From the IMG/VR virus record IMGVR_UViG_3300007735_000798, positions 40,737 to 104,736 of that record: a stretch of DNA of 64,000 nt. One strand, 5' to 3'. Positions 40,185 to 63,601 of the stretch are shown here, piece by piece. Under the pieces are notes generated by a model. The model saw only the letters and a list, made by a program, of their open reading frames with translations, ran no database searches and was not told where the DNA came from. The DNA is from a virus. Numbering within the stretch: the first letter of the stretch is position 1; every line of letters begins with the position of its first letter. The position numbers and the translations under genes were made by a program.

Positions 40185-42086
40185 TTAGATTAATTCTGCA
40201 ACAAATGTAGTATTCTTTTTTACAATATTTTCTGGCGCAATTATATCAAAATAAGCTTTTACACCCCAATTTCCTAGCATAAGTGTTGTATAGTTATCTT
40301 TTCTAGCCCTATTTACACTGGTAGATTTTCTTAAATGTGATGGTAAGTCAAAACTTTGAGTACCTCTAGAAGTAGTGCTAACCTCTACATTTGCACATTG
40401 ATCTTTGGTGTCTTGAACTATAAAATCTTGTTGTTCAATAAATTCTCTTACAGTTAATTTTTTAGTTTCATATTCATTATCAGCTTTATCGCCAATTCCT
40501 CTAGGATAAATATATTCCATAGGTAAATTCATAGTAAAAATATTTTCTAAAATATCAGGATGGTTACTAGCTCTAGAGGCAAACCATATTTTTTTATGGT
40601 CTATACAAGTTTGTAAATATGAATTTGCGCGCCCTAAGAAAAAACTTGTAAAATATTGTTTAATACAAATTGTTCCAAAATCTTTATTATATTGTCGAGC
40701 GCAATCTTTTAACATTTTATTATAATCTTCATTTTCTTTATCTGAATCGAAATCTACAAAACCAATTTTGCGATTCATATCTTTAAAAAATTGAGAATTA
40801 TTAACCGCATCAATAAAAGTATCGGCTCCCGCATGGTCAATAATAATTAGTGCAATATTAAAGTTTTTATATAAATAATAAAAATATTTTATATGATCTT
40901 GCAATGAAGATCCAGCAGCCTGGTAACCATGAACTAAAACACCTTGTTTCTTTTCTTCATCTAGTTCAATAACACTCATCGCAAAATAGTCAGCAACCTT
41001 TGAAGAAGAAAAGTTGGGGTCAATAGATAAAATATATTTTTTATCACTATCTCCAATTACTTTTGTTGTAGGATATTCTCCATCTGGAATTGTACACATA
41101 TGCATCTTTTTAGGGGAAAAATAACTATCTCCACCATCAATAAAACGAGCACAATATTCTCTTAAAAACGAATGATGCGAACTTCCACCACTTTTAGCCA
41201 CTTGAATTGCGGCTTGATCTACCATATGGCTAGGTAAAGCTTCATAGCCTAATTGTGAAACAAAATAAGTACCAGGAAGTTCTCCTTCTTTAGTCTCTTG
41301 TTCTTCTGGGTGTTCTATCAAATGTGACCATTGTTGATAAACACGAAATAAATGTTCAAATGTATAACTTGCAGAACTAAGAGCTAACATCTGAGAAGTA
41401 TTTTCAAAGATTTGTTTATTATCAGGATGTAGTAACCCCTTTTTAATTAATTCATCTTCTAATTTTCTAATACGAATTCTTTCGCCTACGTCACGAGGAG
41501 AACTTAAAAATGGAATTAATACATTATCAATAATATCTGGAGGTAAAAGTAAAAACTCATCAAGAATAAGGACGTTCGCTCGAATACCACGAATTTTTTC
41601 ACCAGTTAATGGGATAGCCGTAATACTGCCACCATTTACTTCCCATTCGTATTGGTCATTTCGTTTACTTTTTAAACCAAAACATTGACGAGCCAAAGCG
41701 GCTTGTGGAGAACTCAAAAATTTTTCAATTTCATTAAATACACGACGACTTGTACGAAAGTTAATTGATGCAATAAGAATTTTAGTTCCTGGCTCAAAAA
41801 TACATTTTAAAATACAATAAATAGCCGCACAAAAACTTTTTGCACAACCACGACCCCATACAAGCATGCAATAATTTCTATTAAAAAAGGAATTAATTGT
41901 TAGTTCTTGATACGATTCTAGATTTAAACCCAAAGCTAAATCAGTTGTAAAACCAAGATTATAACGTAAAAATTTTGCAAGAGATACTCTTGCTTCTTGA
42001 TCTGTTAAATCTCCTTTTAATTCTAAAAGATTGTCATTAACAGAAACAAGTTCTTTTTTATTTTGAGATCCTACGATAAGAGCCAT
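40185..42086 (-). CDS. terL: Terminase large subunit
   Basis: Walker A-like GRGCAKS, IRGIRA-ILDE Walker B, LSSA motif III, RNase H-like SIDP...D and C-terminal KD. Confidence 0.9.
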   Translation of the reverse strand: MALIVGSQNKKELVSVNDNLLELKGDLTDQEARVSLAKFLRYNLGFTTDLALGLNLESYQELTINSFFNRNYCMLVWGRGCAKSFCAAIYCILKCIFEPGTKILIASINFRTSRRVFNEIEKFLSSPQAALARQCFGLKSKRNDQYEWEVNGGSITAIPLTGEKIRGIRANVLILDEFLLLPPDIIDNVLIPFLSSPRDVGERIRIRKLEDELIKKGLLHPDNKQIFENTSQMLALSSASYTFEHLFRVYQQWSHLIEHPEEQETKEGELPGTYFVSQLGYEALPSHMVDQAAIQVAKSGGSSHHSFLREYCARFIDGGDSYFSPKKMHMCTIPDGEYPTTKVIGDSDKKYILSIDPNFSSSKVADYFAMSVIELDEEKKQGVLVHGYQAAGSSLQDHIKYFYYLYKNFNIALIIIDHAGADTFIDAVNNSQFFKDMNRKIGFVDFDSDKENEDYNKMLKDCARQYNKDFGTICIKQYFTSFFLGRANSYLQTCIDHKKIWFASRASNHPDILENIFTMNLPMEYIYPRGIGDKADNEYETKKLTVREFIEQQDFIVQDTKDQCANVEVSTTSRGTQSFDLPSHLRKSTSVNRARKDNYTTLMLGNWGVKAYFDIIAPENIVKKNTTFVAELI

Positions 42087-57062: not shown

Positions 57063-57256
57063 ATGAGATAAAGATAAGGACATAAACCAACCCACAGAGA
57101 GCCTCGTGCCTGCAAGTTGGTTGTCCCACATCGGCACAATTTTTGATTAAGAAAAGACATGAAAGTGTCGGGGTTCATTCTCAAGAAGGGTTGATCGCCA
57201 GAAAAGAGAGAGTGACGAAAGCGTTGGATCGTAATGACTAGGCCTCCTTAATCAAA
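57063..57256 (+). ncRNA. Candidate structured small RNA
   Basis: Full early promoter but the ORF is only ATG AGA TAA; stems GGACA..AACCAAC/GTTGGTTGTCC and TTGATTAAG/CTTAATCAA. Confidence 0.5.
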
Positions 57257-61277: not shown

Positions 61278-61350
61278 GCGGGGCAATGTTCCAAGGCTGG
61301 CGAGAAGGTCTCCAAAACCATCTGGCAGAGTTCGATTCTCTGGCCTCGTG
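61278..61350 (+). tRNA. tRNA-Trp(CCA)
   Basis: Acceptor GCGGGGC/GCCTCGT, anticodon loop CTCCAAA, T arm CAGAG-TTCGATT-CTCTG; weak D arm; no encoded CCA. Confidence 0.75.
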
Positions 61351-61353
61351 CGC

Positions 61354-61425
61354 GGGATGGTAGCTCAAAGGTAGAGCAGCGCCCTTTTAAGGCGTTGGTT
61401 GTGAGTTCGATCCTCACCCATCCCA
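61354..61425 (+). tRNA. tRNA-Lys(TTT)
   Basis: GGGATGG/CCATCCC acceptor, GCTC/GAGC D arm, GCGCC-CTTTTAA-GGCGT, GTGAG-TTCGATC-CTCAC. Confidence 0.92.
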
Positions 61426-61470
61426 TAAAAAATCCATTGACAAATCAATTTTTTCTGATATATTAGGTGT

Positions 61471-61599
61471 ATGAAAAAGAAAACCACCGCTGAAAAAACT
61501 CTCACCGAGATTGCCAAGATCGCCCTGTTTGAGGCTAACGCCAAAACTGGCCTAAAAAAAATCCAAAAAATCTTGGAAAATTTTCAAAAAACCCATTGA
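61471..61599 (+). CDS. Small Lys-rich protein
   Basis: 42 aa after a TTGACA-N16-TATATT promoter. Confidence 0.55.
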   Translation: MKKKTTAEKTLTEIAKIALFEANAKTGLKKIQKILENFQKTH

Positions 61600-61630
61600 C
61601 ATTTCAATCAAATCCTTGTATTCTATAAAA

Positions 61631-61894
61631 ATGAAAGCACTACTAAAGAAAATCAAACTGGCAATCGCAGACTCCAAGTTCGGACAACTCTCCAATCCTG
61701 TGTATAGGTTGAAGTATCGTCCTTACACGGATCACGGAAACAAGGAGGTCTATGACTACCTCGTTTCGCGGCCCTTCGATGGGTTCGTGAATGGCTTCAC
61801 CGCCTACTGCTTCGGCAAGGGCGTTCGTAGGTTCCGCTTTGACGAGATCGTTGATCGTGAAGTGGTTCACATCTTTGGAAAGTCAGTTGCATAA
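61631..61894 (+). CDS. Stand-alone WYL-like domain protein
   Basis: YRLKY...VSRP...FTAYCFGKGVRRFRFDEI resembles the WYL C-terminal motif (AxC..R..R.FR.DRI). Confidence 0.55.
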   Translation: MKALLKKIKLAIADSKFGQLSNPVYRLKYRPYTDHGNKEVYDYLVSRPFDGFVNGFTAYCFGKGVRRFRFDEIVDREVVHIFGKSVA

Positions 61895-61909
61895 CTTTTG
61901 CTCAATTAA

Positions 61910-62623
61910 ATATCTGCGAGTTCATAGCCAGAGGGAACTGGTGTCCACGCGCAGAGAATAAACTCCCACAATTTTTAGTTCTTTTACAATTTGCAAAACA
62001 AGCCCGAATAAAGTATCGGAATAAAAGATGGACAGAAACAAGGGTCTGTCGTCATACATAAAACCCTCCGAGGCTGAAATCATTTTTTCCGAAAGGAAGA
62101 GAATATCCAATGCTTCTATAGAACCGATGTGCGCTCGGATGCTGCTTGGAGAATAAGGCGCACAAAAAATTTTACCAACCCATTCCGAAAACCCCAATGA
62201 TTGTTGGGGAACCATGCTACGGCATAGGGGTGGGTGGTAAAAAACTCTCCCAAGCTCTGGCGGACATTTCTCCGTTCAACTTGTGAGCTAGTCGCCGCAA
62301 GGCGATTCGATGTCGGTGCTGCCAGAAGGCACGGAGTCAACGGCAGGGAGTTCTGGCCTCCCTGTCACACTTTCTTTGAAAAAAATTTGATGGTCTACTA
62401 ACCATAGTCTAGAAAGAGAGGTTAGTAGCGTAAGCCGACGCCGTTATAGTTTAGGGCCATCTACACATCCGATTGGGAGTAATGAACCAATAGTCAGAAC
62501 CCACTGATGAAGAGAAGCAGATCATGCCTGTGATAAGGGGGATGGTCACCGTGACCCGCGTTCGGCACGCGTTAGCTGTATCGGCCCGATTCCGCAAGGA
62601 AAAAGACGGCAAGAGAAAGCAGC
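61910..62623 (+). ncRNA. Large structured non-coding RNA (GOLLD/ROOL-class size, family unassigned)
   Basis: ~710 nt with no credible ORF; many hairpins with GNRA/UNCG loops and a long-range stem. Confidence 0.7.
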
Positions 62624-62700
62624 CGAACTTCTTAATTATCAAGCACTTACAACGGCGCGCCCCGCCGCGCCACTTAAGTCGTTCATTATCAACACTTTAC
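62624..62700 (+). repeat. 77-bp element R11
   Basis: Arms ...TATCAAGCACTTAC and TTAAGTCGTTCATTATCAACACTTTAC around the GC core. Confidence 0.85.
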
Positions 62701-62875
62701 ATTTTCAACATGGAAAATCTTGACAGGCGCATAGAAAACGTGTAATAGTTCAAGCCAAATTTGGACAACAGCCCACAGAAGGTGTATTTGTAACAAAAAT
62801 CATCAGCGGCTATCAACAAAAATATTTTCTACAAAACCAGTTGACAATAAAATCAAATAGGGCTATCTTTAGAGC

Positions 62876-63601
62876 ATGATCACCACACAACTGCCTCTCC
62901 CTATGCGTTGCTCGTCTGACGCTTTGGTGCAACCCGAATTGGAATTGAAGCCTACGCGCAATCCGCAATTCATGCGCGTCGAAAAATTCTTTGACTCGCT
63001 CGACCGCTCGCGTGTTAGCGAGTATGTTGACTACTGGACTTCTATCGCGCCCAAGGGAACGCAAGACTCAATGTTGCGTTGGCTGTTCGCGTTCATGTCT
63101 GTGCATACAAGCTGGAAGTCTAATGTCAACGGCTACAATGCAATCAAGACTCTCGACTGGTGGCACGATCAGCAAGTTCTTCTCAACAAGCTCAAGCATA
63201 GTGGCGTTGGCTTGCACAACAACCGCACAAAGTTTGTGTGGGAGTTCCAGCAAAAGTTCTGGAAAGACATTCCGAAATACTCGCATGAACCCGCGCATTG
63301 GCGCAACCATCGTGATCAACTCGTCAAGGATGTTCTTGGTCTTGGCAAGGCCAAAGTCTCGTTCTCCTTGGAGATGATGCATCCCGACAAGTGCGAGGTT
63401 GTCTGCATGGATACTCATATGTTCCAAGCCTACGGACTCGACCAAACCAAAGACGAAAAACATTACGATAACATTGAGGCTCATTGGATCACCATGTGCC
63501 GCGCATACGATGTTCCTTGCTACATCGCTCGCTGTTTGTATTGGGATGCGATCCAAGACAAGCAGGACTCGCGCTACTGGTCGTATGTTTTTGAAGAATA
63601 A
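62876..63601 (+). CDS. HhH-GPD superfamily DNA glycosylase/AP lyase
   Basis: GVGLHNNR, HhH LGLGKAK, MDTH catalytic Asp; no Fe-S Cys cluster. Confidence 0.75.
   Translation: MITTQLPLPMRCSSDALVQPELELKPTRNPQFMRVEKFFDSLDRSRVSEYVDYWTSIAPKGTQDSMLRWLFAFMSVHTSWKSNVNGYNAIKTLDWWHDQQVLLNKLKHSGVGLHNNRTKFVWEFQQKFWKDIPKYSHEPAHWRNHRDQLVKDVLGLGKAKVSFSLEMMHPDKCEVVCMDTHMFQAYGLDQTKDEKHYDNIEAHWITMCRAYDVPCYIARCLYWDAIQDKQDSRYWSYVFEE

Follow-up and report, generated by a model that had tools for sequence, protein, structure and literature searches.

The gene-free stretch described here probably constitutes a stable-RNA cassette array, in which small RNAs of about 65-165 nt, many with a pseudoknot, are lined up among the tRNA genes of a phage and fold independently of one another; they would be made as a precursor, processed, and released to act separately. 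The modules of this array are independently conserved, and comparison of the sequences shows that two of them, modules E and G, stand on their own in distant phages. The constant 135-nt core, module E, is on the comparative evidence an uncatalogued RNA.

Genomic Context of the RNA Locus

The source is an uncultured tailed phage from freshwater, and the window (the whole 64,000-nt stretch of DNA that was analyzed) is the final 64 kb of a 104.7-kb IMG/VR contig with an estimated completeness of 69%. The large terminase gene (40185-42086 in the window) shared no more than about 25% identity with that of any cultured relative. The region from 50 to 64 kb of the window is a + strand early region in which the genes are small and leaderless and a separate sigma-70-type promoter precedes every one. 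Around the RNA, the features follow one another as tRNA-Trp, tRNA-Lys, a 42-aa ORF, an 87-aa ORF (orf87), the gene-free stretch at 61895-62632, a repeat, two promoters, and a 241-aa gene (Table 1); the two small ORFs between tRNA-Lys and the RNA stretch are leaderless. A previous reading of the letters alone (the sequence-only reading) had proposed an RNA of approximately 710 nt that is located downstream of tRNAs and ends at a repeat, like a cassette. Both positional statements were confirmed, with tRNA-Trp and tRNA-Lys upstream at 61278-61425 and a copy of a 69-nt GC-palindrome at 62633-62701. In relatives, this 69-nt repeat is found 3' of the array or of tRNA-Cys. Apart from the promoter in front of orf87, a promoter scan detected no promoter-like site upstream of the RNA, nor any until 62720.

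None of the phage tRNAs (Trp and Lys, and Cys in relatives, e.g., L002:4810-4882) encodes the 3' CCA; their maturation must therefore use endonucleolytic 3' cutting and CCA addition in the host. In most relatives, tRNA-Cys(GCA) sits between module G and the cassette repeat. It has been precisely deleted in the window (62620-62640), and L052 likewise lacks it. The 241-aa gene located 3' of the array (62876-63601) is syntenic with the array in most relatives, and its match to Ogg-HhH (8-oxoguanine glycosylase HhH domain) is sub-threshold (20.9 vs. a cut-off of 27 bits).

Table 1. Features of the RNA locus and its immediate surroundings, in window coordinates.
Feature	Position	Strand	Description
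tRNA-Trp(CCA)	61278-61351	+	ARAGORN; Rfam tRNA, 72.7 bits (tRNA-Trp/tRNA-Lys entry)
tRNA-Lys(UUU)	61354-61425	+	ARAGORN; Rfam; upstream neighbor of the array
Sigma-70-type promoter	61596-61624	+	TTGACA-17-TATTCT; predicted by promoter scan; -10 box 6 nt 5' of the orf87 ATG
orf87	61631-61894	+	87-aa stand-alone protein, predicted WYL/Sm-like beta-barrel
Module A	61906-61971	+	Outer stem UCUGCG/CGCAGA; inner hairpin CCAG...CUGG; pseudoknot of loop GGGA with downstream UCCC
Junction	61973-61994	+	UUUU-AGUUCUUUUAC-AAUUUG, between A and B; sole exact copy in the 104.7-kb record
Module B	62001-62075	+	Closing stem AGCC/GGCU, A-rich strand, GACAGA/UCUGUC hairpin; loop GGG pairs with downstream CCC (pseudoknot)
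Module C	62084-62165	+	GAAA hairpin; UGUGCGC/GCGCACA stem with 23-nt loop; predicted, stem invariant
Module D	62166-62243	+	Predicted multi-hairpin insert; UUUUACC/GGUAAAA enclosing two hairpins
Module E	62244-62378	+	135 nt; four or five helices: P1 enclosing hairpin P1a, P2, P3, P4
Module E, P2			GNRA hairpin
Module E, P3 loop	62321-62327		GCCAGAA
Module E, P4	62342-62366		Loop UUCUGGC (62351-62357), followed by a U-rich tract
Module F	62389-62461	+	Optional long hairpin; GAUGG/CCAUC around CUACUAACC/GGUUAGUAG
Module G	62467-62631	+	Multi-hairpin RNA of roughly 165 nt; tRNA normally directly 3'
Cassette-boundary repeat	62633-62701	+	69-nt GC-palindrome; ends the unit; one of 11 copies within 49-64 kb

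Non-coding Character and Conservation

The stretch at 61895-62632 contained no ORF longer than 97 aa and none that is conserved, which bears out the previous statement that no credible ORF is present. Related loci differ by gain, loss, and reordering of modules and by a 1-nt indel, which is located in module G and falls within the longest + strand frame, so that no conserved ORF is possible in the stretch. The folding energy of the whole stretch was compared with that of 20 shuffles and gave modest z values of -2.5 (+ strand) and -2.4 (- strand). A z of about -2.5 is weak evidence when it stands alone, and the decisive evidence for RNA structure, as far as sequences can provide it, is the comparison with relatives.

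Relatives were gathered by using the 241-aa downstream protein as a query, which yielded six related phage contigs. DNA patterns derived from the most conserved part then added five more viral loci (including L013, a chance match) and 28 metagenome loci, and later scans added two more distant phages, L061 and L063. Matches to loose patterns that were judged to be due to chance after inspection comprised L013, L019-L027, L056-L060, L062, L064-L082, and L083-L095. A blastn search of the stretch against 50,697 phage records returned no match. In 185,579 prokaryote genomes, scanned twice, module E had no copy, which left no host or prophage lead; a scan for further copies of module G also found none.

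Patches of the stretch were 80-95% identical across related loci, which equals the conservation of the tRNAs and exceeds that of flanking genes (module E, 89-95%; tRNA-Cys, 89-100%; 241-aa gene, 75-83%). Substitutions across the loci preserve base pairs, and the G.U pairs and GNRA loops indicate that the functional RNA strand is the + strand. Taken together, the compensatory changes, G.U pairs, and GNRA loops show at the level of sequence comparison that the modules are real + strand RNA structures. Most of the helices that had been listed in the sequence-only reading were compensated in about 40 loci, and this was found alongside the modest folding energy (z of about -2.5 relative to shuffles). 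The stem TCTGCG/CGCAGA covaries, its middle pair being G-C, A-U, or C-G, whereas the stems TCGCC-GCAA-GGCGA and GGCAGGGAG/CTCCCTGTC had compensated changes in six of eight and five of nine pairs, respectively. The stem CTACTAACC/GGTTAGTAG inside GATGG/CCATC was compensated in 4/9 pairs (0 in slid controls), and covariation also supports the GNRA hairpin and adjoining helices of the 3' part.

Modular Architecture and the Junction Sequence

Alignment of the loci and mapping of window pieces onto 39 loci divided the stretch into modules A, B, C, D, E, F, and G, in this order. Relatives carry further modules (X, Y, and others), and the module sets differ among the 39 loci, with E as the only module that is present in all. 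Modules C, F, and G are optional across loci. The orders A-B and B-A both occur, and in many loci A and B are the other way round from the window. Modules A, C, and Y of the distant phage L018 sit 2 kb upstream of E, and five small genes lie in between. L061 contains E with its terminator-like P4, followed by a predicted sigma-70-type promoter, the junction, module G, and tRNA-Asn; in this phage, E closes an operon. In L010, L041, L042, and L055, module G is absent and tRNA-Cys lies within about 10 nt 3' of E. L036 harbors a 1.27-kb version of the array with several additional blocks. The proposal of one ornate non-coding RNA of approximately 710 nt therefore holds insofar as the stretch is a structured non-coding RNA on the + strand; it is not supported for a single RNA closed by a long-range helix, because the sets and orders of modules vary among loci and the modules are split in L018 and L061.

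One of the additional blocks of L036 (L036:1515-1645) resembles a tRNA in that its closing stem has 7 bp and it contains one hairpin similar to a D-arm and two similar to T-arms (GGUUCGAUUCC and GGUUCAAAUCC); neither ARAGORN nor Rfam called a tRNA in it.

An 11-mer, AGUUCUUUUAC, with conserved AU-rich flanks was found at most block borders, with about 40 occurrences between modules. In relatives, it is located 3' of the orf87 stop codon or 3' of X, A, or B. L036 contained four exact copies and one copy with a single mismatch, and in L061 the 11-mer coincides with the 5' end predicted for module G. The window has one exact junction only, and its remaining module borders are degenerate. Within the whole records searched, the 11-mer was confined to the RNA locus, and it is unique in G000. 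Two roles were considered for the junction and rejected. It is not a general phage promoter, given that it occurs solely at the RNA locus in the records searched, and it is not an internal sigma-70 promoter, as it has no -35 box and no promoter-like site exists inside the RNA.

Module E, the Constant Core

Every one of the 39 loci contained module E, with L018, L061, and L063 among them. Compensated changes were observed in 16 of its 37 pairs, compared with 5.7±1.7 in shuffles (0 of 500 were as high) and at most 8 in slid controls. The loops of P3 and P4 are complementary to each other, and the pairing changes in concert among loci: GCCAGAA/UUCUGGC in the window family and L018, GCCAGA/UCUGGC in L063, and GUUAAG/CUUAAC in L061. 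With four sequence types in support, this loop pairing is, by all sequence indications, under selection. When it was drawn as a nested helix, the structure was 12.8 kcal/mol worse than the minimum-energy fold, and the P3/P4 contact would therefore be a loop-loop (kissing) interaction, formed either within one molecule or between two.

Hairpin P4 consists of 9 bp, is rich in G+C, and is followed by a U-rich tract, thus resembling an intrinsic terminator. Directly 3' of E is a promoter in L018 and L061 and a separate canonical terminator in L063, which suggests that E is typically a 3'-terminal element. The terminator after E in L063 (L063:7105-7290) is formed by GAGCGGGGCC...GGCCCCGCUC and a U-tract, and the P2 loop of this copy is UCAA and not a GNRA loop.

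The Other Modules

Both the stem of module A and its loop/tail pair covary across the window, L004, L018, L028, and L035. The pseudoknot was found as GGGA/UCCC, GGAAAG/CUUUCC, GGAAGG/CCUUCC, and GGAGG/CCUCC, and cognate loop/tail combinations gave complementary runs of 4, 5, 6, and 6, compared with 3-4 for non-cognate pairings. Module A is located 3' of B in many relatives and, in L018, occurs with C and Y far from E. The sequence-only reading had paired ACTCCCA (61962) with TGGGAGT (62474), closing about 500 nt. This pair failed, as the UCCC of ACUCCCA covaries instead with the adjacent hairpin loop; the module A pseudoknot uses up ACUCCCA, and the partner proposed at 62474 is therefore not supported. 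Moreover, GGGAGU is kept in L046, L052, and L061, which do not contain module A, and other loci with module A differ at that place. Nor was any helix detected that would enclose the 710 nt in full.

The pseudoknot of module B (GGG/CCC) becomes GCG/CGC in a second type of B, and module X, which has the same layout, contains CGGAU/AUCCG. Modules B and X are paralogous, since the X profile matches B (E=8e-4). The GACAGA/UCUGUC stem of B is invariant across loci. Module C was found in 5 loci and is nearly invariant, its copy in L018 being 95.5% identical over 67 nt. Module D has no counterpart in any relative, and other loci contain different hairpin inserts at this position. Module F occurred in 10 loci (9 distinct sequences) and was absent in others, including L004-L007; the compensated helix noted above is its inner helix (4/9 pairs vs. 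0 in slid controls).

Module G contains several covarying helices, with 7 of 28 pairs compensated. In L061, it has its own predicted promoter and is directly followed by tRNA-Asn. A conserved Shine-Dalgarno-like run, AAGGGGGAU, lies directly 5' of an AUG in module G (62536-62552), and the early genes of the phage are otherwise leaderless. The frame behind AAGGGGGAU-AUG is broken by a 1-nt indel in relatives and is therefore not a gene; a role of this run in ribosome binding is pure speculation. Module Y, which is absent from the window and had no Rfam match, is a multi-helix RNA of roughly 150 nt closed by GAGACG/CGUCUC (L007:3630-3785; L018:11078-11205, - strand). It is common to L007, L010, L036, and the distant L018. 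The module profiles had no match at 57063-57256, another part of the early region of the window.

Comparison With Known RNA Families and Systems

A cmscan search of 61400-62900 against Rfam at E<=10 gave no match within the stretch; this check had been suggested by the sequence-only reading, and GOLLD, ROOL, introns, RNase P, and tmRNA were all without a match. With Rfam 15 at the gathering score, only tRNA was detected in the window and in six related loci, the models searched including group I/II introns, RNase P, tmRNA, riboswitches, ribozymes, HEARO, and OLE. ARAGORN also found no tmRNA. The GOLLD model (RF02032, gathering score of 150 bits) gave one 7.7-bit noise match at an unrelated place of the whole record. 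The ROOL model (RF03087, gathering score of 99.1 bits) had no match at E<=10; control genomes were also without a match when ROOL was searched alone, so that the negative result is carried mainly by cmscan. The previous suggestion of GOLLD, ROOL, or a new class is thus not upheld for the first two, and a new class is indicated for the 135-nt core and the array architecture and not for a giant RNA. T-box-like pairing with the neighboring tRNAs was rejected, the longest complementary runs being 7-8 nt and no better than those of shuffles.

GOLLD and ROOL resemble the array in that they are phage-encoded, lie near tRNA islands, and are rich in pseudoknots and GNRA loops. GOLLD also has a conserved part beside a variable part, and GOLLD and ROOL assemblies are built by kissing loops. 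GOLLD is a single RNA of about 800 nt with one fold, in which a universally conserved 3' domain follows a variable 5' domain. The array, too, has a constant core, module E, with variable neighbors; however, these are located on both sides of it, are reordered, and can be separated by genes or promoters. The constant part of the array is only about 135 nt, and a single intertwined fold would probably not tolerate such reordering and splitting of modules.

T4 carries rnaC and rnaD (species 1 and 2) inside its tRNA cluster. They are stable RNAs that are made from the same precursors as tRNAs. Like the modules of the array, they are non-tRNA RNAs of about 120-140 nt that lie side by side with phage tRNA genes. 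On the other hand, no similarity in sequence or structure was observed, and the array modules are more numerous, swappable, and pseudoknotted, with a conserved junction between them and a WYL-like gene in front. A search of the T4 locus with the covariance model R1 and filters off gave only hits with E>=2, on the wrong strand or at the wrong place. To our knowledge, no function has been established for T4 rnaC/rnaD, GOLLD, or ROOL. In Escherichia coli, the 3'ETS-leuZ and the metZ-metW spacer are functional small RNAs that RNase E frees from the spacers of polycistronic tRNA transcripts. These are short, little-structured host sponges, whereas the array RNAs are phage-encoded, highly structured, and numerous. 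Antitoxin RNA arrays of the ToxI type and CRISPR arrays likewise consist of precursor units that are split by a conserved short sequence and can be cleaved by a dedicated nuclease. In contrast, the present array is made of different structured RNAs rather than repeats or spacers and has no linked nuclease gene, and cutting at the junction is a presumed step.

A few enigmatic RNAs, namely T4 rnaC/rnaD, GOLLD, and ROOL, have been described from phage tRNA islands. The array represents a different organization, in which many small supported RNA folds are swapped like cassettes around one invariant core, and this core is small (135 nt), is conserved like a tRNA, and has a covarying loop-loop interaction. 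Should the modules turn out to bind host factors or to serve as decoys for them, the phage would have in this array a compact set of natural RNA ligands with which to take over the host. Were the junction to act as a signal for processing or recombination, it would represent a new way to build and evolve RNA operons.

Proposed Mode of Action and Alternative Explanations

Early transcription from the leaderless orf87 promoter may yield a single precursor that contains both the cassette array and the tRNA. This precursor would be cut at the junctions and tRNA borders by RNases of the host that process tRNAs or are specific for AU, namely RNase P and RNase Z at the tRNA and, at the junctions, RNase E or a similar enzyme. 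The compact RNAs freed in this way may then each act on their own, and during host takeover they would most likely bind proteins or serve as decoys. The kissing loops of module E could clamp its 3'-terminal, terminator-like hairpin into a compact, nuclease-resistant end; alternatively, they could link one E molecule to another, giving a head-to-tail dimer. A more far-reaching version, which we regard as conjectural and rather improbable, is that of a type of phage locus not described before, an integron-like array of exchangeable structured-RNA cassettes, in which the 11-25-nt junction would be both processing site and the recombination point at which cassettes are shuffled between phages, the linked WYL/Sm-like single-strand-binding protein would service the array, and E would self-associate by its reciprocal pair of kissing loops, forming a dimer or larger assembly of RNA alone for host takeover or anti-defense.

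The modules could also be parts of one large, ornate RNA of the GOLLD/ROOL type, with E as its core, the others as exchangeable peripheral domains, and the E loops as intermolecular bridges of a single folded or self-assembling particle. Their contiguity in the window and about 38 close relatives, with no internal promoter or clear terminator, would suit such a particle, as would the abundance of GNRA loops and pseudoknots. The constant part beside a variable part and the proximity to tRNAs fit descriptions of GOLLD, and the cost of 12.8 kcal/mol for nested pairing of the E loops leaves tertiary or quaternary pairing as the likely form. However, the A/B order is permuted among relatives, genes split the modules in L018 and a terminator and promoter split them in L061, and tRNA-Cys follows immediately 3' of E in some phages. 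No covarying helix between modules was found, the long-range pair that had been proposed fails, and the GOLLD and ROOL models were without a match. These results make a single large RNA unlikely.

The terminator-like P4 raises the question of whether E is a cis-acting leader that works as an attenuator or riboswitch and thereby governs whether transcription continues into module G and tRNA-Cys. Its 9-bp, G+C-rich hairpin with a U-rich tract, its position about 10 nt 5' of tRNA-Cys in L010, L041, L042, and L055, and the aptamer-like conservation of E (invariant junctions with covarying stems) agree with this role. However, the window keeps E even though tRNA-Cys has been lost, and in other phages E lies at the 3' end of a unit, before a promoter (L018 and L061) or a canonical terminator (L063), and not before a regulated gene. 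Compared with the minimum-energy fold, nested pairing of the antiterminator type is less favorable by 12.8 kcal/mol, and there is no notable complementarity to neighboring tRNAs; we therefore consider a leader function very improbable. Even less probable, and already disfavored, is the absence of any RNA function, with the stretch consisting of recombination debris, DNA-level elements (cassette boundaries or protein-binding palindromes), or hidden small protein genes. The surrounding early region is indeed a cassette array with repeated DNA elements, the junction could be a DNA-level recombination site, and folding of the whole stretch gave a z of only -2.5. This explanation does not account for the conservation of E, which is like that of tRNAs and higher than that of flanking genes (89-95% vs. 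75-83% for the 241-aa gene), nor for the compensatory changes that keep pairs, including G.U, and the strand specificity of the GNRA loops. Hidden genes are at odds with the lack of a conserved ORF and the 1-nt indel inside the longest + strand frame.

The Upstream Gene orf87

The gene orf87 lies directly upstream of the array in every close relative, and tblastn identified it in 33 further loci with 77-95% aa identity. It had no Pfam match at E<=10, and the best Pfam match to WYL (PF13280) among its relatives was obtained for one relative at 13.5 bits (E=0.07), which is below the cut-off of 21.8 bits. No match was found in the protein atlas and no sequence relative among solved structures, and only a handful of small relatives were detected across 1.84 billion representative proteins, with P0004-P0008 being distant.

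The AF2 model of orf87 (pLDDT 81) consists of an N-terminal helix that is followed by six strands, forming a small beta-barrel. Its best fold matches were the WYL domains of PafBC, BrxR, CapW, and DriD, with Foldseek probabilities of 0.91-1.0 but E values of at least 0.02. These WYL domains are single-strand-binding. The similarity to them is weak (VIA Z 4.8-5.2, rmsd 2.9-3.9 A, 68-75 residues aligned, 10-27% identity), and Hfq/Sm proteins (Z of about 4) and small lipoprotein barrels lie within 1 Z unit of WYL. No orf87 was detected in the L018, L061, and L063 records, of which L063 alone is complete. Because this complete 76-kb phage has E without an orf87 homologue, E cannot require orf87. 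The partnership is thus not obligatory for E, and the WYL/Sm-like protein is a candidate partner of the array in the close family.
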